IMG/VR virus record: IMGVR_UViG_2585427776_000006
Origin: a virus
Lineage: Duplodnaviria; Heunggongvirae; Uroviricota; Caudoviricetes
Length of the DNA stretch: 5,817 nt
Strand: one strand, 5' to 3'
Shown here: positions 1-5,817 of the stretch, one piece after another
Layout: each line of letters opens with the position of its first letter
Position numbering within the stretch: the stretch's first letter is position 1
Program-made: the position numbers and the translations under genes
Notes under the pieces: model-generated
Seen by the model: only the letters and a program-made list of their open reading frames with translations
Told to the model about the DNA's origin: nothing
Database searches by the model: none

Positions 1-189
1 CATGCCGATCGCCAGGCTTAAATGAGTCGGTGTGAATCCCATCAGCGTTACCGTTTCGCGGTGCTTCTTTAGTACGCTACGGCAAATGTCATCGACGTTT
101 TTATCCGGAAACTGCTGTCTGGCTTTTTTGATTTCAGAATTAGCCTGACGGGCAATGCTGCGAAGGGCGTTTTCCTGCTGAGGTGTCAT
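1..189 (-). CDS. Hypothetical phage protein, partial. ATG at 189..187; the 63 visible codons (MTPQQENALRSIARQANSEIKKARQQFPDKNVDDICRSVLKKHRETVTLMGFTPTHLSLAIGM...) run off the window start with no stop
   Basis: Open frame from the ATG to the window edge. Its ATG overlaps the TGA of the upstream 27-aa ORF (ATGA), as seen throughout this operon. An alternative in-frame ATG lies at 255..253. No recognised homolog. Confidence 0.4.
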   Translation of the reverse strand, partial: MTPQQENALRSIARQANSEIKKARQQFPDKNVDDICRSVLKKHRETVTLMGFTPTHLSLAIGM

Positions 190-269
190 TGAACAAGTCC
201 CATGTCGGCAAGCATAAGCACACAGAATATGAAGCCCGCTGCCAGAAAAATGCATTCCGTGGTTGTCAT
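186..269 (-). CDS. 27-aa hydrophobic small peptide (MTTTECIFLAAGFIFCVLMLADMGLVQ), possible small membrane protein
   Basis: Not in the supplied ORF track (too short). ATG at 269..267 overlaps the methyltransferase TGA (268..266) as ATGA. A GGGAGG Shine-Dalgarno sits 4 nt upstream. The stop TGA (188..186) overlaps the next ATG (189..187). Confidence 0.3.
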   Translation of the reverse strand: MTTTECIFLAAGFIFCVLMLADMGLVQ

Positions 270-823
270 GCAGCCTCCCGACGGGCAAGAATCCTTGAGC
301 CGAACGCCATCAACTCTCCACGATCAACGGTCGTAAAGTGGCAGTGTGTACGGGGGTATGGGTGCCAGATAATGAGCATCGAGCCTTTATTATTTCCACT
401 GACGGGTTTCTCAGTGAGTGGGTTAATAAATGCCAGTCGTCCTGCCGTGATGAATCTGACCTCACTGGCGGTTTGTATCGCTTCATGAAACCATCCGACA
501 GATGTGTCAGCAGGCAATAACATTACACATCCCACACTACTGAATTTGTTTTCAGTGGCTGCCTTTTTCACAAAAGGGGAAATATTGCTGTATGGTGGAT
601 TCAACCAGACATAACCAGAGGCATATCCCATTGCTTCAGGCCATGAAGTGGTTAATGTGTTCTGCTCCTGTGAGATAAAAAGCCGACATAGTCGGTTTTT
701 TTCGCTGGCGGCAGCATCAAGTTGAAAAACGAACTCTGCATTAAGCGCAGCAAAAATCTCTGGTGGTGTGCGCCAGCTGTCGCGATGTTCGGCAGGAGTA
801 TTGCTTCCGGTGAAATCAGTCAT
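266..823 (-). CDS. Phage-type DNA N6-adenine methyltransferase (Dam-like, small phage MTase family)
   Basis: 185-aa ORF. NPPY catalytic motif (VWLNPPYSN; NPPY codons at 601..590) is typical of N6-adenine/N4-cytosine MTases. The N-terminal WRTPPEIF...FQLDAAAS matches the conserved start of the phage Dam family as I recall it. Position downstream of exo resembles Stx-type lambdoid phages. Confidence 0.85.
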   Translation of the reverse strand: MTDFTGSNTPAEHRDSWRTPPEIFAALNAEFVFQLDAAASEKNRLCRLFISQEQNTLTTSWPEAMGYASGYVWLNPPYSNISPFVKKAATENKFSSVGCVMLLPADTSVGWFHEAIQTASEVRFITAGRLAFINPLTEKPVSGNNKGSMLIIWHPYPRTHCHFTTVDRGELMAFGSRILARREAA

Positions 824-977
824 ACAGCCCCCGTTTATTATTTATCTCCTCAGCCAGCCGCTGTGCTTTCAGGGGATTTCGGATAACAGAAAGGCCGGGA
901 AATACCCAGCCTCGCTTTGTAACGGAGTAGACGAAAGTGATCGTGCCTACCCGGATATTATCGTGAGGATGCTTCAT
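816..977 (-). CDS. Hypothetical 53-aa protein ([53 protein letters not shown])
   Basis: Not in the ORF track (under 60 aa). ATG 977..975 overlaps the exo stop TGA (976..974) as ATGA. A GGGGAG SD lies 8 nt upstream. The 3' end overlaps the methyltransferase start by 8 nt. Position corresponds to the small ORFs after exo in lambda. Confidence 0.4.
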
Positions 978-1654
978 CGCCATTGCTCCCCAAATGCAAA
1001 ACCAATTTCAGCCAGTGCCTCGTCCATTTTTTCGATGAACTCCGGCACCATCTCGTCAAAACTCGCCATGTACTTTTCATCCCGCTCAACCACGACATAA
1101 TGCAGGCCTTCACGCTTCATACGCGGGTCATAGTTGGCAAAGTACCAGGCATCTTTTCGCGTCACCCACATGCTGTACTGCACCTGGGCCATGTAAGCCG
1201 ACTTTATGGCCTCGAAACCACCGAGCCGGAACTTCATGAAATCCCGGGAGGTAAACGGGCATTTCAGCTCAAGGCCATTGCCGTCACTGCATAAACCATC
1301 GGGAGAGCAGGCGGTGCGCATACTTTCGTCGCGATAGATGATCGGGGATTCAATAACATTTACGCCGGAAGTGAACTCAAACAGGGTTCTGGCGTCGTTC
1401 TCGTACTGTTTTCCCCAGGCCAGCGCTTTAGCGTTAACTTCCGGAGCCACACCGGTGCAAACCTCAGCCAGCAGGGTGTGGAAGTAGGACATTTTCATGT
1501 CAGGCCACTTCTTTCCTGATCGGGGCTTTGCTATCACGTTGTGAACTTCTGAAGCGGTGATGACGCCGAGCCGTAATTTGTGCCACGCATGATCCCCCTG
1601 TTCGACAGCTCTCACGTCGATCCCGGTACGCTGCAGGATAATGTCCGGTGTCAT
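974..1654 (-). CDS. exo: Lambda-type 5'-3' exonuclease Exo (Red alpha)
   Basis: 226-aa translation ([21 protein letters not shown]...GEQWR) matches lambda Exo from memory over its whole length, with the same size. Start overlaps the bet stop (ATGA). Confidence 0.97.
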
Positions 1655-2436
1655 GCTGCCACCTTCTGCTCAGTGGCTTTCTGTTTCAGGAATCCAAGAG
1701 CTTTCACTGCTTCGGCCTGTGTCAGTTCTGACGATGCGCGAATGTCGCGGCGAAATATCTGGGAACAGAGCGGCAATAAGTCGTCATCCCATGTTTTATC
1801 CAGGGCGATCAGCAGAGTGTTAATCTCCTGCATGGTTTCATCGTTAACCGGAGTGATGTCGCGTTCCGGCTGACGTTCTGCAGTGTATGCGGTATTTTCG
1901 ACAATGCGCTCGGCTTCATCCTTGTCATAGATACCCGCAAATCCGAAGGCCAGACGGGCACACTGAATCATGGCTTTATGCCGTAACATCCGTTTGGGAT
2001 GCGACTGCCACGGTCCGGTGATTTCTCTGCCTTCGCGGGTTTTGAATGGTTCGCGGCGGCATTCATCCATCCACTCGGTAACGCAGATCGGATGATTACG
2101 GTCCTTGCGGTAAATCCGGCATGTACAGGATTCATTGTCCTGCTCAAAGTCCATGCCATCAAACTGCTGGTTTTCATTGATGATGCGGGACCAGCCATCA
2201 ACGCCCACCACCGGAACGATGCCGTTCTGCTTATCAGGGAAGGCGTAAATTTCTTTCGTCCACGGATTAAGGCCGTACTGGTTGGCGACGATCAACAATG
2301 CGATGAACTGCGCATCGCTGGCATCACCTTTAAATGCCGTCTGGCGAAGAGAGGTGATCAGTTCCTGTGGGTCGACAGAATCCATGCCGACACGTTCAGC
2401 CAGCTTCCCTGCCAGCGTTGCGAGTGCTGTACTCAT
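1651..2436 (-). CDS. bet: Lambda-type single-strand annealing recombinase Bet (Red beta)
   Basis: 261-aa translation ([38 protein letters not shown]...) matches lambda Bet from memory, with the same length. Canonical gam-bet-exo order. Confidence 0.97.
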
Positions 2437-2441
2437 CCGTT

Positions 2442-2738
2442 TTATACCTCTGAATCAATATCAACCTGGTGGTGGGCAATAGTTTCAACCATGTACCGGA
2501 TGTGTTCTGCCATGCGTTCCTGAAACTCAACATCGTCATCAAACGCACGGGTAATGGCTTTTTTGCTGGCCCCGTGGCGTTGCAAATGATCGATGCATAG
2601 CGATTCAAACAGGTGCTGAGGCAGGCCTTTTTCCATGTCGTCTGCCAGTTCTGCCTCTTTCTCTTCACGGGCGATCTGCTGGTAGTGACGCGCCCAGCTC
2701 TGAGCCTCAAGACGATCCTGAATGTAATAAGCGTTCAT
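2442..2738 (-). CDS. gam: Gam, RecBCD inhibitor (short 98-aa form)
   Basis: Translation [34 protein letters not shown]...[10 protein letters not shown] matches lambda Gam. CAGGAG SD lies 7 nt upstream of the ATG. An in-frame stop at 2795..2793 with no intervening start means only the short form is encoded here. Confidence 0.95.
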
Positions 2739-2813
2739 GGCTGAACTCCTGAAAATGGCTGTGAAAATATCGCCCGCGAAATGCCAGGCTGATTAGGAAA
2801 ACAGGAAAGGGGA

Positions 2814-3020
2814 TTAGTGATTCAGGCCGTTACCGCGTCCGTCGAGAAAAACTTCCACGAGCAAATCACGGGTATAAGTGCGCTCGATGCCGCGATGCAG
2901 ATATAGCCGTCCGCGTAAATTAGCTGATGCAGTCCAGGTACCATCTTTGTGTTTGACCAGCATTCCTGGCATGACCGCACCTCGATTAACGGTCTGCGTT
3001 CCGTAATGTTGATGAACCAT
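2814..3020 (-). CDS. Hypothetical 68-aa early protein in the Kil position upstream of gam ([68 protein letters not shown])
   Basis: The track ORF 2814..3095 begins at a non-ATG codon (TTG). I place the start at the internal ATG 3020..3018, which has an AGGAG SD 5 nt upstream. Function assigned by position only; the sequence is not recognised. Confidence 0.5.
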
Positions 3021-3156
3021 AAAAACTCCTGCCCGTAAGCTGGGCTGCTGAACATATAGAGACTTCTGCGCGTATTTCGACGTATGGGGAAACAAGTGTG
3101 ATTCGCCAACCGTATCATTAAGCCCGGCCCGAGTTACTGATGTTTATTCTTAAAAG

Positions 3157-3165
3157 AATTAACTG
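3157..3165. repeat. Left copy of the 9-bp direct repeat AATTAACTG flanking the AT-rich cassette (extended imperfect repeat TTCTT-N5-AATTAACTG begins at 3147)
   Basis: Exact 9-mer also present at 5026-5034. Both copies are preceded by TTCTT and a 5-nt spacer. Confidence 0.4.
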
Positions 3166-3192
3166 AAAAGAGGAAGGTTTGATGAGTTTTTT

Positions 3193-3210
3193 TACGTGAA
3201 TTAACACGTA
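3193..3210. promoter_or_regulatory. Palindrome TACGTG-AATTAA-CACGTA (6-bp arms, 6-bp spacer), candidate operator in the divergent intergenic region
   Basis: Perfect inverted repeat read directly from the sequence. Lies between the divergent Kil-position gene and the cassette promoter. Confidence 0.3.
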
Positions 3211-3306
3211 AGACTGCTGGTTATTAAACCATCACATTAGATATCTAAAAATTGTGATCGGTATCTCCCTACTATAAAAAAAAGTAGTTGAATATACGGT
3301 CTATAC

Positions 3307-3334
3307 TTGAAATAAATAAAAGTATTCTTATTTT
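3307..3334 (+). promoter_or_regulatory. Candidate sigma70 promoter for the cassette: -35 TTGAAA (3307-3312), 16-bp spacer, -10 TATTTT (3329-3334)
   Basis: Hexamers and spacing read from the sequence about 30 bp upstream of the gene A start. Other weaker combinations exist in this AT-rich region, so the exact promoter is uncertain. Confidence 0.3.
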
Positions 3335-3353
3335 TTAGATTCTGTGTTGTGAA

Positions 3354-3358
3354 AAGGA
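3354..3358 (+). promoter_or_regulatory. Ribosome-binding site AAGGA for the 343-aa ORF
   Basis: AAGGA lies 6 nt upstream of the ATG at 3365. Confidence 0.5.
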
Positions 3359-3364
3359 ATTTTT

Positions 3365-4396
3365 ATGTCCTCGAATATTTTATCTGGTGAAAAAGTAATC
3401 AATAAAATTGCTGAAAAGTTGAGCGATTATAAATATCCTCCGGCTGAAGGTATGAACTCTGAACATGTCAGCAAATGGATTAAGCAATTTGCAGTGGAGG
3501 ATAGACGATTTATCTTAGATGAAACGCTTTATCTACTTAATGCAGGTTACCTATCCGAAAGTCAATATCAACGAAAAATAAAAGCCATTGCAAGAAGTGA
3601 AAAGAACGCGAAACTCTTCAGATATGCAGGTTTTTTAGATATTCAAAAAAAAGGTTCTAGTCAGAAGGAATTGCTTAAATCTCTTTATGAAACAGTAGGG
3701 ATCAAATTTAACATCGTTACTGAATCATCAACTCAAGATGAAGTAAATAAATTTGATACATTTGTATATATTGATGATGTGTCGTTTTCAGGAGAAAAGG
3801 CCATCAAATCGATAAGTAATTTTGTTTTAAAATTTAATTTAAGAGATATTAAATTCAATGTATATTTTTTTTCATCTCATACGTTATCTGACTATAATAT
3901 AAAAAGACGATTAGAATATATTTTTAAGGATAGAAACATTTTTGTACACGTGAAGAATGGTGGTATGCGTGAGGTTGAAAACCGAAAAAGTCGTTCTGCT
4001 CAATCAGGTGTTTTCTGGCCAAGGAAATATAGTGTAGATACTCCCGAGAAATTCGAGGAGTGTGAGCTTTACAAAGGCGTATTCAGAGATGGATATGCCT
4101 CTTCTGATAGTTTTAGAAATGAAGCCTCAAGGGATCGTTTCGAATCTATCCTTACTAAAGTCGGCTTTAATATCTTGCTGCACAGGAAAACCCCTAGTGA
4201 GGTGCTCAAACCTCTAGGTTTTTCTACTTTTGACGGTTTGGGTTTTGGGGGAACAACATTTACTTATCGAAATTGCCCGAATAATGTGCCGCTGGCTTTT
4301 TGGTGGGGAGATTATGAACCAACAGGTGCTCCCGCATTGGACTGCTGGTATCCACTAATGAAGCGGAATGGGTATAATGAGTGGTATGAGCTATAG
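3365..4396 (+). CDS. Uncharacterised 343-aa protein, candidate toxin/effector of the cassette. Contains a phosphoribosyltransferase-like loop motif FVYIDDVSFSGEK (residues 133-145)
   Basis: Long ORF with a good SD and AT-rich codon usage distinct from the phage genes. The motif (four hydrophobics, DD, then V-S-F-S-G) resembles the PRPP-binding signature of type I PRTases (for example VLLVDDVLTTGGT), but that resemblance is my inference from a single short motif. No homolog recognised. Overlaps the downstream NADAR gene. Confidence 0.75.
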   Translation: MSSNILSGEKVINKIAEKLSDYKYPPAEGMNSEHVSKWIKQFAVEDRRFILDETLYLLNAGYLSESQYQRKIKAIARSEKNAKLFRYAGFLDIQKKGSSQKELLKSLYETVGIKFNIVTESSTQDEVNKFDTFVYIDDVSFSGEKAIKSISNFVLKFNLRDIKFNVYFFSSHTLSDYNIKRRLEYIFKDRNIFVHVKNGGMREVENRKSRSAQSGVFWPRKYSVDTPEKFEECELYKGVFRDGYASSDSFRNEASRDRFESILTKVGFNILLHRKTPSEVLKPLGFSTFDGLGFGGTTFTYRNCPNNVPLAFWWGDYEPTGAPALDCWYPLMKRNGYNEWYEL

Positions 4397-4997
4397 ATTA
4401 TATCCGCTACAGAACACAGTTTCCTTCAGGAAAACCACCGAAAAATGGGGGGGGCTTTCCAACATGGCTAAAGGATATCCATTGTTAATCAATGGGTTGC
4501 CTATTCAATCAAGTGAAATCCTTTACCAAGCATGCCGATATCCAGACTATCCGGATATACAAAAGGCCATCATTACTCAAGGAAACCCCTATGAAGCCAA
4601 GCAGACCGCAAGATCGTTTGAATCCAAAACTCGCGCAGGATGGGATAAGAATCGAGTTTCGATTATGAAGTGGTGTGTATGCGTAAAATTATGCCAGAAC
4701 TGGGATACGTTCTTTGCGCTGTTAGACAGTACAGGCGACCATTTCATCGTGGAACACTCAGAGAAGGACCAATTCTGGGGTGCCAGTAAAGACCCAGAAG
4801 GTAACTATTATGGTATGAACGTATTAGGGCGAATTCTCATGGACGTGAGAGGGGTTGCTAGGAAAAAGGGGGCTGATGGGTTTGCAACAATACCATCGCT
4901 ATCTTTGGACAAATTTTTTCTCCTAGGCGAAAGAATTAAAGATGTAACATTTGTAGAGCCAACGCCTGGAGCAGGGCAAAGTTTATCCTTGTTTTAG
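4368..4997 (+). CDS. NADAR (YbiA-like, DUF1768) domain protein, predicted ADP-ribosyl / N-glycoside hydrolase and candidate antitoxin or immunity partner
   Basis: Translation carries the NADAR signature blocks as I recall them from E. coli YbiA: GGLSNM (YbiA GDFSNF), SSEILYQACRY (YbiA TSEHYFQAQKF), IVEHSEKDQFWGAS (YbiA LVEHTENDAYWGDG) and NVLGRILMDVR (YbiA NRLGYLLMELR). Three in-frame ATGs (4368, 4377, 4386) all lie inside the end of the upstream gene, so the exact start is uncertain. Confidence 0.85.
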   Translation: MGIMSGMSYRLYPLQNTVSFRKTTEKWGGLSNMAKGYPLLINGLPIQSSEILYQACRYPDYPDIQKAIITQGNPYEAKQTARSFESKTRAGWDKNRVSIMKWCVCVKLCQNWDTFFALLDSTGDHFIVEHSEKDQFWGASKDPEGNYYGMNVLGRILMDVRGVARKKGADGFATIPSLSLDKFFLLGERIKDVTFVEPTPGAGQSLSLF

Positions 4998-5025
4998 CGT
5001 TCCATCTGGGGCATTTTCTTCCATA

Positions 5026-5107: not shown

Positions 5108-5136
5108 GTCACCGGAGCCTGAACAACTCCGGTGAC
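5108..5136. other. Perfect 10-bp inverted repeat GTCACCGGAG-(9 nt)-CTCCGGTGAC, a stable stem-loop
   Basis: Read directly from the sequence. No following T-run on either strand, so it is not a canonical intrinsic terminator. Possibly a processing or regulatory hairpin, or a remnant of the phage early-left leader. Confidence 0.4.
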
Positions 5137-5315
5137 TTCTGCGCTAAACGGGGACGTTTATGCGCACATACAATCTAAACTCTCTTCTCCCGCCACAGAT
5201 GCAGAAATGCACCTGCGATTTTTTGCATCCAGCGTTTGACCTCTGCGGAGGTGAAGCGTGAACCTCCCACAAGACGGCATCAAACTTCATCGCGGTAACT
5301 TCACCGCTATCGGTC

Positions 5316-5340
5316 TGAACCGCCCCGGGAATCCTGGAGA
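5316..5340 (+). repeat. Putative left terminal inverted repeat of the IS element (TGAACCGCCCCGGGAATCCTGGAGA)
   Basis: IS3-family ends begin with TG, and the spacing to orfA is typical. The right end is outside the window, so the repeat cannot be confirmed by pairing. Confidence 0.45.
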
Positions 5341-5369
5341 CTAAACTTCCTGAGAAAGAGGTAAACAGG

Positions 5370-5696
5370 ATGACTAAAAATACTCGTTTTTCCCCCGAAG
5401 TCCGTCAACGGGCAGTCCGTATGGTTCTGGAAAGTCAGAGCGAATATGACTCACAATGGGCGACAATTTGTTCCATTGCTCCAAAGATTGGCTGTACGCC
5501 GGAGACTCTGCGTGTCTGGGTTCGCCAGCATGAGCGGGATACCGGGGGCGGTGATGGAGGGCTCACCACCGCTGAACGTCAGCGTCTGAAAGAGCTGGAA
5601 CGTGAAAATCGTGAACTGCGCCGCAGTAACGATATCCTTCGCCAGGCTTCCGCTTATTTTGCGAAGGCGGAGTTCGACCGCCTCTGGAAAAAATGA
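5370..5696 (+). CDS. IS3-family transposase OrfA (helix-turn-helix DNA-binding part), 108 aa
   Basis: Translation [60 protein letters not shown]...[36 protein letters not shown], with the leucine-zipper-like C-terminus typical of IS3 OrfA. AGAGG SD upstream. Confidence 0.9.
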
Positions 5697-5817
5697 TGCC
5701 ACTGCTGGATAAGCTGCGTGAGCAGTACGGGGTCGGACCGCTATGCAGCGAACTGCATATTGCCCCGTCAACGTATTACCACTGTCAGCAACAGCGACAT
5801 CATCCGGATAAACGCAG
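5693..5817 (+). CDS. IS3-family transposase OrfB (catalytic part), N-terminal fragment truncated by the window end
   Basis: Translation [41 protein letters not shown]... in the -1 frame relative to orfA. An A6 run (5688-5693) at the orfA/orfB junction is a candidate programmed -1 frameshift site. Confidence 0.85.

Follow-up and report, generated by a model that had tools for sequence, protein, structure and literature searches.

Relatives of the NADAR family cleave ribosyl-amine bonds, namely those of ADP-ribosyl-N2-guanine and of the 5-phosphoribosylamino-pyrimidines of riboflavin synthesis. Together with DarT1, a NADAR protein forms a toxin-antitoxin pair that acts on guanine N2 in DNA and in which the toxin gene comes first. 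A survey of E. coli NADAR proteins distinguished four subtypes (DarT1-linked, sigma70-operon-linked, YbiA and phage gp30.3), and the ADP-ribosyltransferase (ART) YarT is paired with an antitoxin of the YbiA type (PMC11125620). A further combination, that of a NADAR protein with a phosphoribosyltransferase (PRTase), is DS-32, which was validated as an anti-phage system in the DefensePredictor study (DeWeirdt et al., Science 2026; PMC13092281). The DefensePredictor preprint describes its toxin side as structurally unlike DarT, and DeWeirdt et al. suggest that toxin-antitoxin partners were swapped in DS-32. In E. coli MG1655 the reference DS-32 allele, expressed from the predicted native promoter region, showed activity; in the part of Table S7 covered here, it lowered the plating of Bas26 by 10^3.7 (approximately 5000-fold) and that of RB69 by 10^1.6, and led to smaller plaques with T5 and SECphi18. 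Here, we analysed a 5,817-nt stretch of DNA from the virus record IMGVR_UViG_2585427776_000006 (hereafter the window), which carries two adjacent genes on the plus strand, gene A (3365–4396) and gene B (4386–4997), and found that this pair is almost certainly DS-32.

The identification is based on both genes. Gene A passed the NCBIfam equivalog DS32_1 (NF053875) with 310.5 bits (cut-off 250), and gene B passed the equivalog DS32_2_antiphage (NF053876) with 257.4 bits (cut-off 240). The predicted proteins matched the cloned DS-32A (WP_000097610.1, Table S8) at 342 of 343 residues, with L84 in place of F, and the cloned DS-32B (WP_032260665.1, Table S8) at 202 of 203 residues, with E191 in place of K; both substitutions lie outside the conserved motifs. 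As in DS-32, the two genes are adjacent and co-oriented and overlap by 11 nt. Gene A and gene B thus almost certainly constitute this two-gene anti-phage system of E. coli prophages, and we refer to their products as DS-32A and DS-32B. The tested system and the window pair share the genes, their order, their overlapping ends and the nin-region niche of lambdoid prophages; they differ by the one substitution per protein and in that the window module lies in a rearranged remnant disrupted by an insertion sequence (IS). By its near identity to the reference allele, the window pair is expected to defend against phage. DS-32 has been published and phage-tested and the locus is catalogued, so that the finding is already known. 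The initial annotation had not recognised that the upstream gene codes for a PRTase of the PRTase-CE family, that the whole pair is a defence system, or that it had been published as DS-32; its proposal for gene B as such confirms that a real defence gene can be recovered from raw sequence.

Other resources gave less specific assignments. DS-32 is absent from PADLOC-DB v2.0.0, and with PADLOC gene A matched only retron PRTase models and gene B only PDC-M42C, weakly (33 bits); an assignment of the pair to PDC-M42 was rejected. PHROGs contains the families of both genes, each labelled 'unknown function'. A literature search for PRTase-CE, or for NADAR together with phosphoribosyl pyrophosphate (PRPP), phosphoribosyltransferase or restriction, returned only the DefensePredictor papers; Nicastro et al. 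2023 lay outside this search.

The open reading frame (ORF) of gene B extends from an ATG at 4368 to a TAG stop at 4995–4997 on the plus strand (209 residues) and contains further in-frame ATG codons at 4377 and 4386. RefSeq places the start at ATG 4386 (203 residues, WP_024167494.1), and the resulting 'MSYR' N-terminus is common to close homologues, so that 4386 is likely the start codon rather than 4368. With the stop codon of gene A at 4394–4396, this start makes the overlap between the two genes 11 nt instead of 29 nt. The ORF and its overlap with gene A are therefore as initially annotated, while the start and the length of the overlap are probably to be revised. Four motif blocks were located in gene B: GGLSNM (4449–4466), SSEILYQA (4509–4532), EHSEKDQFWG (4752–4781) and NVLGRILMDVR (4818–4850), which align with GDFSNF, TSEHYFQA, EHTENDAYWG and NRLGYLLMELR of YbiA. 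The agreement across the four blocks is far above chance. The Pfam NADAR profile PF08719 (gathering score 35.1 bits) matched with 82.4 bits (E = 5.7e-23) over profile positions 2–159 (158 of 163), and a phmmer search against the PDB returned YbiA (2b3w, E = 1.9e-11). In an AlphaFold2 model (mean pLDDT 93; 37 homologues in the alignment) gene B showed the NADAR fold, a YbiA-like alpha-helical core between small beta sheets, and in a Foldseek comparison against the PDB this model matched YbiA (2b3w, E = 2.4e-8, TM 0.63/0.75) and the Phytophthora nicotianae NADAR protein in complex with ADP-ribose (8bau, E = 3.7e-7, TM 0.65/0.70); no other significant match was found in that comparison. The profile match and the predicted fold bear out the initial proposal of a NADAR/YbiA-like domain with these four blocks, and by family membership gene B is predicted to code for a genuine NADAR-type hydrolase of sugar-base bonds.

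The residues expected to form the active site of this N-glycosidase are retained. In the co-crystal structure of the Phytophthora protein, ADP-ribose is contacted by E43, K50, R79, W89, R93, E125, D130 and W133; a profile alignment with 8bau and the family alignment gave E44, R51, R76, W86, R90, E123, D128 and W131 as the counterparts in DS-32B. The sole change among these contacts, K50 to R51, is conservative and nearly invariant in the clade. The DS-32B active site thus appears to be intact and the enzyme looks active, as judged from the alignments and the model. According to the Phytophthora NADAR paper, a diagnostic catalytic position is occupied by Asp in DarT1-linked and by His in phage NADAR proteins; DS-32B belongs to the YbiA subfamily because it has Glu at this position (residue 123). 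YbiA and the Phytophthora protein share with DS-32B the fold, the catalytic and phosphate-binding residues and the subfamily Glu, but identity is about 27%, and DS-32B has a conserved C-terminal segment of about 35 residues more. This clade-specific extension (residues ~160–190, 4863–4955 on the plus strand, pattern IPxxxIxxFxLxGxxI) was modelled as short strands (pLDDT > 90), with F177 invariant and G181 nearly invariant among the 37 homologues; it is included in the DS32_2 model and absent from YbiA.

Gene A (3365–4396, plus strand) codes for a PRTase-CE protein of 343 residues, the presumed effector, which matched the Pfam family PRTase-CE (PF24390, 'CE' standing for 'conflict effector') with E = 2.2e-38 and, over residues 10–334, the PADLOC model PRTase_III-A of the retron type III-A effector with E = 1.5e-10. 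It shows the type I PRTase fold, that is, a five-stranded Rossmann-like core and a PRPP loop with two acidic residues. The PRPP-binding loop, FVYIDDVSFSGEK (residues 133–145, 3761–3799, plus strand), was assigned from the alignment of homologues and corresponds to VVILTDTIGSGNQ, the PRPP motif of the Retron-Eco11 PRTase, mutation of which abolishes defence. Among 48 homologues D137 and D138 of this loop were invariant and F141 and G143 nearly invariant. A second motif, RNCPNNVP (residues 302–309, 4268–4291, plus strand), is common to retron type III PRTase effectors, and its residues R302, N303, P305, N306 and P309 were invariant in the same 48 homologues. Gx14PNNxP has been described as the signature of retron-associated PRTases (PMC12746101); in DS-32A, the spacing from G291 to the motif is 13 residues. 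Two parts of the protein have no solved counterpart: the helical domain at its N-terminus, and a stretch of about 140 residues at its C-terminus in which invariant Arg, Asn and Trp are frequent. On the strength of its conserved residues and modelled fold, DS-32A looks enzymatically active. No ART domain was detected in gene A by Pfam and NCBIfam profiles or by structure comparison, and a DarT-like ADP-ribosyltransferase was ruled out by the PRTase-CE match together with the type I PRTase fold.

These features set DS-32 beside several described systems. With DarTG1 it shares the two-gene layout with a toxin-like enzyme first, a conserved NADAR active site, anti-phage activity and mobility. It differs in that gene A is a PRPP-type PRTase rather than an NAD-dependent enzyme and is unlike DarT in sequence and structure, and in that the NADAR protein of DarTG1 has a catalytic Asp (D171 in E. 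coli C7) and a basic N-terminal extension, whereas DS-32B has Glu (E123), a core that begins at about residue 4 and its extra segment at the C-terminus. Retron type III-A systems such as Retron-Eco11 resemble DS-32 in that gene A is homologous to the model of their effector over almost the full length and has the PRPP loop and PNNxP, and both are anti-phage; however, DS-32 lacks a reverse transcriptase and a helix-turn-helix partner and is paired with an N-glycosidase instead. Between 3075 and 5315 there was no third ORF of sufficient length to encode a reverse transcriptase, msr/msd non-coding RNA not having been searched separately. The defence PRTases ShosT, PsyrT and OpnC are likewise effectors of anti-phage systems, ShosT being different in its fused pyrophosphatase and its DprA-like DNA-binding antitoxin. 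The PRTase-linked prophage NADAR subtype seen here is not among the four of the E. coli survey (PMC11125620). In K-12, ybiA shares a LexA-controlled operon with ybiB, which codes for a DNA-binding, predicted phosphoribosyltransferase (PMC11125620); this would be a second, independent NADAR-PRTase association.

For the comparison with distant relatives, one genome per species was scanned for relatives of gene A; 304 genomes were positive, and the best 80 loci were retained. Their hosts included Proteobacteria, Chloroflexota, Planctomycetota, Acidobacteriota, Myxococcota, Bacteroidota, Spirochaetia, Patescibacteria and others, and most relatives were located in bacterial chromosomes. In all 80 loci a co-oriented NADAR ORF came directly 3' of the PRTase gene; by heuristic start assignment, the two genes overlapped in 55 loci and were 0–20 nt apart in 24. 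The PRTase and NADAR genes are thus obligately coupled. One locus, in Enterobacter mori (L002, 6001–9668), contains a PRTase gene that is intact and shares 76% identity with gene A, followed by a NADAR gene with only 29 codons to the stop; about 1 kb of unrelated DNA separates the decayed gene from a second, complete PRTase-NADAR pair. The surviving NADAR protein might serve the two PRTases together; alternatively, the PRTase may be non-toxic alone.

The strict coupling bears on two functions in which gene B would act without gene A. One is counter-defence, raised in the initial annotation: the NADAR protein would clear DarT1-type ADP-ribose from guanines of phage DNA and so let the induced phage replicate in hosts that carry DarTG1. 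The phage NADAR proteins (AdfN/gp30.3) act in exactly this way, the ADP-ribose-contacting residues are kept in DS-32B, and the four E. coli NADAR subtypes tested all hydrolysed ADP-ribosylated guanine in vitro (PMC11125620). In cells, however, neither the YbiA-type nor the phage NADAR proteins rescued DarT1 toxicity (PMC11125620), and DS-32B has Glu at the diagnostic position rather than the Asp of DarT1-linked or the His of phage enzymes. The AdfN/gp30.3 proteins resemble DS-32B in being encoded by virus-derived elements, but they are orphans of virulent phages with an anti-defence role, whereas DS-32B was paired with PRTase-CE in every locus, mostly outside phages, and the cloned pair gives defence. 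Moreover, among 50,697 phage records no DNA match to the pair (blastn, distant mode) and no protein match to gene A (tblastn) was found. We therefore disfavour counter-defence and consider it very improbable. The other is housekeeping: DS-32B would be a YbiA-like N-glycosidase disposing of reactive riboflavin intermediates, and its location in a prophage would be incidental. YbiA is the closest solved structure, and the TIGRFAM model for the N-glycosidase of riboflavin intermediates (TIGR02464) matched gene B with 70.5 bits, but this score is below the cut-off of 73.7 while that of the DS32_2 equivalog was passed. YbiA is encoded in the LexA-regulated dinG-ybiB operon, and NADAR proteins of this kind also occur in a riboflavin gene fusion, whereas DS-32B lies in an accessory defence operon, on a low-GC island present in about 1% of E. 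coli genomes and obligately coupled to a PRTase-CE gene, and E. coli already possesses the chromosomal ybiA in a different operon (PMC11125620). A housekeeping role is hardly credible on this evidence. A putative antitoxin or immunity function for the upstream gene, the other role considered initially, would fit the coupling in 80 of 80 loci and the partner-swapping idea of DeWeirdt et al.

In many of the 80 loci the NADAR protein was larger than in E. coli. The NADAR ORF exceeded 400 residues in 24 loci, and Pfam and local profile searches identified C-terminal fusions in 26: 18 to HsdS, the specificity subunit of type I restriction-modification systems (Methylase_S), five to DUF1156 and a DNA methylase domain (L031, L040, L041, L053 and L072) and three to a ComEA-type helix-hairpin-helix (HhH) domain (L052, L064 and L075). 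NADAR::HsdS stretches lie at 8819–12122 of L082, 9001–12205 of L085 and 9001–12220 of L087, and such fusions were also present in L015, L020, L021, L025, L026, L029, L035, L036, L043, L051, L055, L058, L060, L062, L063, L071, L077 and L080. The C-terminal extension of DS-32B is kept as a linker in the fusions to HsdS and to the methylase. In three NADAR::HsdS contigs the gene order was hsdM, optional other defence genes, PRTase-CE, NADAR::HsdS and hsdR. Eighteen of the 80 loci lay within type I restriction-modification operons, and in the 18 NADAR::HsdS loci hsdM was found upstream on the same strand in all cases; within the stretch read, 15 of them also had hsdR downstream. A second hsdS was not seen in any of the 18, the fusion being the only HsdS of the operon. 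The NADAR::DUF1156 fusions have a SNF2/NOV_C helicase on one side and a DUF499 ATPase on the other. For roughly one in three members of the family, the NADAR protein is thus physically part of a DNA-recognising, self-marking restriction-modification subunit; in the remaining loci (about two thirds of the 80, DS-32 included) it is a stand-alone protein with no restriction-modification genes nearby. In one NADAR::HhH locus (L052), a radical-SAM protein with an HhH domain is encoded directly upstream of the PRTase gene. Defence modules were also seen inside the same type I operons, namely SIR2_2 with DUF87/HerA (L085, 5485–8987) and Shedu SduA_C (L087, 7411–8949).

Such operons could be read as guarded restriction-modification systems. 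PrrC-EcoprrI provides a precedent for the release of a guard-type effector by anti-restriction. By analogy, the PRTase-NADAR pair would serve as an abortive back-up restrained via its NADAR partner, which in many phyla belongs physically to the type I complex: phage anti-restriction proteins that bind or disable this complex would also disable the NADAR protein and thereby release the PRTase, and the E. coli form without a fusion would be derived and respond to a different trigger. The hsdM and hsdR genes flanking the NADAR::HsdS fusions, the missing second hsdS and the presence of SIR2 and HerA or the Shedu SduA domain in the same operons all speak for this arrangement, which could apply to the fused forms. 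It does not sit well with the roughly two thirds of loci in which the NADAR protein stands alone and restriction-modification genes are not nearby, nor with the protection of E. coli MG1655 by DS-32 without a dedicated restriction-modification partner, and for the family as a whole we regard it as unlikely.

The reading that we favour, with a confidence only slightly above even, is that DS-32A and DS-32B oppose each other in the manner of a toxin and an antitoxin. DS-32A, a type I PRTase of the 'conflict effector' clade, would consume PRPP and move 5-phosphoribose onto a nucleobase nitrogen, most plausibly the exocyclic amine of a DNA base, and the resulting adduct would block replication of the phage and, when unchecked, of the cell. 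DS-32B, the YbiA-type N-glycosidase, would strip the adduct and so keep the uninfected lysogen healthy, and infection would shift the balance toward the PRTase. PRPP-dependent transfer onto an exocyclic amine would create a bond of exactly the kind that NADAR proteins hydrolyse. DNA is the probable carrier of the substrate because the NADAR protein is fused to HsdS, DNA methylase or HhH modules in 26 of the 80 loci; these DNA-binding fusions, found in the DS-32B clade in other phyla, suggest a substrate on DNA, as in DarTG1. The pairs of DarT1 with its NADAR protein and of YarT with its YbiA-type antitoxin are precedents for such an opposition. ShosT offers a parallel on the effector side, being a PRTase toxin that binds PRPP and uses no common purine; its phenotypes are those of DNA damage, and the antitoxin that counters it binds DNA.

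Several points weigh against opposing enzymes of this kind. To our knowledge, no DNA base has ever been seen to be phosphoribosylated. The only measured output of a related defence PRTase, that of Retron-Eco11, is a drop of PRPP by about 50% rather than a nucleic-acid adduct, and this effector is non-toxic when expressed alone. The E. coli NADAR protein has a short conserved C-terminal tail and no fused DNA-binding domain. The literature search found no experiments on DS-32 other than plaque assays. The intact PRTase gene beside a decayed NADAR gene in E. mori is a further such point, which in itself neither supports nor refutes toxicity. A more specific version, in which DS-32A writes base 5-phosphoribosylation in DNA (e.g. 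at guanine N2, with PRPP as the donor), the NADAR protein erases it and, in a quarter to a third of the family, the eraser is built into the specificity or methylase subunit of restriction-modification systems, is put forward tentatively and is rather unlikely in our estimate.

In the main alternative model, both proteins are effectors and work one after the other on free metabolites, DS-32B being required for defence and not an antitoxin. The PRTase would make a ribosyl-N compound from PRPP and a base or amine, or run backward on nucleotides; the NADAR protein would then release ribose-5-phosphate and the base, and this futile cycle would drain PRPP or nucleotides and starve phage replication. 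The loss of PRPP once the Retron-Eco11 PRTase becomes active is tied to abortive infection, and a two-enzyme cascade that depletes nucleotides has been shown for PUA-Cal-HAD. Nicastro et al. 2023, who named PRTase-CE, reportedly predicted that such domains target free nucleotides, which likewise counts for a cascade. Co-occurrence in 80 of 80 loci and translational coupling suit a two-step pathway as well as they suit a toxin-antitoxin pair. On the other hand, the known NADAR substrates carry ribose on an exocyclic amine and not on a ring nitrogen of canonical nucleotides, so that a simple futile cycle on nucleoside monophosphates would need a new specificity; the fusions to HsdS, methylase and HhH domains in 26 of 80 loci are hard to reconcile with an enzyme of free metabolites; and a constitutive futile cycle needs an off-switch, of which none is apparent in a two-gene system. 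Overall, a depletion cascade seems possible but doubtful.

We know of no acceptor substrate that has been established for any defence PRTase (retron type III, ShosT, PsyrT, OpnC or DS-32A). Among these, only DS-32 has a partner enzyme of known bond specificity, that for the ribosyl-amine N-glycoside. The strict pairing across phyla and the repeated fusions to HsdS, methylase and HhH domains lead to the testable hypothesis of a reversible DNA phosphoribosylation linked to restriction-modification. If this is true, DS-32A would write a nucleic-acid modification that has not been described before, the fused restriction-modification systems would possess, besides their own restricting and protecting activities, another such pair of a different chemistry, and DS-32 would be the minimal, experimentally tractable form.

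The surroundings of the pair in the window are those of a lambdoid prophage. Positions 1–3076 correspond to an early-left operon on the minus strand, with the genes for Dam methylase, exo, bet, gam and kil at 266–3020. A low-GC module begins at approximately 3075 (GC 0.38 compared to 0.51 in the flanking prophage) and is identical, except for one base, to an island that other E. coli prophages carry in their nin region. The final 79 nt of an MT-A70 methylase gene come first in it, followed by gene A, gene B, an ORF of 33 codons and 19 codons of ybcN. At the left junction (3064–3090), identity to the island-carrying record L001 begins at 3075, and identity to an island-less prophage (L089) ends at about 3076. 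The 3' remnant of the MT-A70 family DNA methyltransferase gene occupies 3075–3153 (plus strand), and in L001 the MT-A70 pseudogene ends at the equivalent of window position 3153. At the other end, the prophage gene ybcN keeps its first 19 codons (5258–5315, plus strand) and is then cut off by an IS; identity to L001 extends to about 5315, and ybcN starts in that record at the equivalent of 5258. The remainder of the window (5316–5817, plus strand) is the left end of an IS3-family element of the IS629/IS1203 type with orfA at 5370–5696, and a record with matching sequence (H27) labels it as IS3-like, IS1203 family. In the E. coli prophage stretch L096 the same IS insertion was found 373 nt past the NADAR stop codon.

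The initial placement of gene B on a prophage is thus supported by its neighbours and by the occurrence of the same island in nin regions. The window is a mosaic, rearranged prophage remnant, and it is defective because it lacks the immunity and replication genes that normally separate kil from the nin region. This exact arrangement was not found in any complete E. coli genome, at most 62% of the window being covered by any record, and several different deletions around an intact gene pair were seen in public assemblies; the window thus shows a rearrangement specific to its strain. Of 5426 complete E. coli genomes, 62 (approximately 1%) had the island or a variant of about 78% identity, always on the chromosome. 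In the three complete-genome records of which the annotation was read (L001, L090 and L094), the pair lay in the nin region of a lambdoid prophage; DS-32 is a moron of lambdoid E. coli prophages, seated in their nin region.

Candidate expression signals flank the pair. The AT-rich region upstream of gene A (3154–3364, plus strand) is the presumed native promoter region of the operon; GC was 0.32 over 3077–3364, compared to 0.51 in the flanking prophage. It contains one promoter-like site (TTGAAA-16-TATTTT, 3307–3334), but the number of such sites in the upstream region was not above that expected from shuffled sequence, and no promoter is claimed. Directly after the DS-32B stop codon, a consensus scan identified a weak terminator-like hairpin (4999–5022, plus strand) with a 5-bp stem, GTTCC...GGGGC, followed by the T-rich tail ATTTTCTTCC; the hairpin is no more than a pattern match. 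Between gene B and the small ORF that precedes ybcN lies a perfect 10-bp inverted repeat (5108–5136; GTCACCGGAG, 9 nt, CTCCGGTGAC). It has no T-run and could serve as a terminator of the nin region or as a site for protein binding.

In the E. coli prophages L094–L096, an intact MT-A70 gene coding for 161 residues (3304–3789) directly precedes the pair. This adjacency may be meaningful given the methylase fusions found elsewhere; the 78% variant in L090 does not show it. The latter record, a DLP12-like prophage of E. coli 268.2, carries two DefensePredictor systems, DS-6 (3019–4592) and the DS-32 variant (8233–9866; about 78% DNA identity). DS-6 consists of a DUF3037 protein and a HipA kinase, with accessions as in Table S6, and is located between kil and the repressor gene, and the DS-32 variant is located between P and ybcN. 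This layout suggests two defence hotspots in the DLP12-like type of prophage, and in other relatives the first slot, between kil and the repressor gene, is occupied by a pair of genes coding for an ASCH-domain protein and an N-acetyltransferase (L089, 7501–8917).

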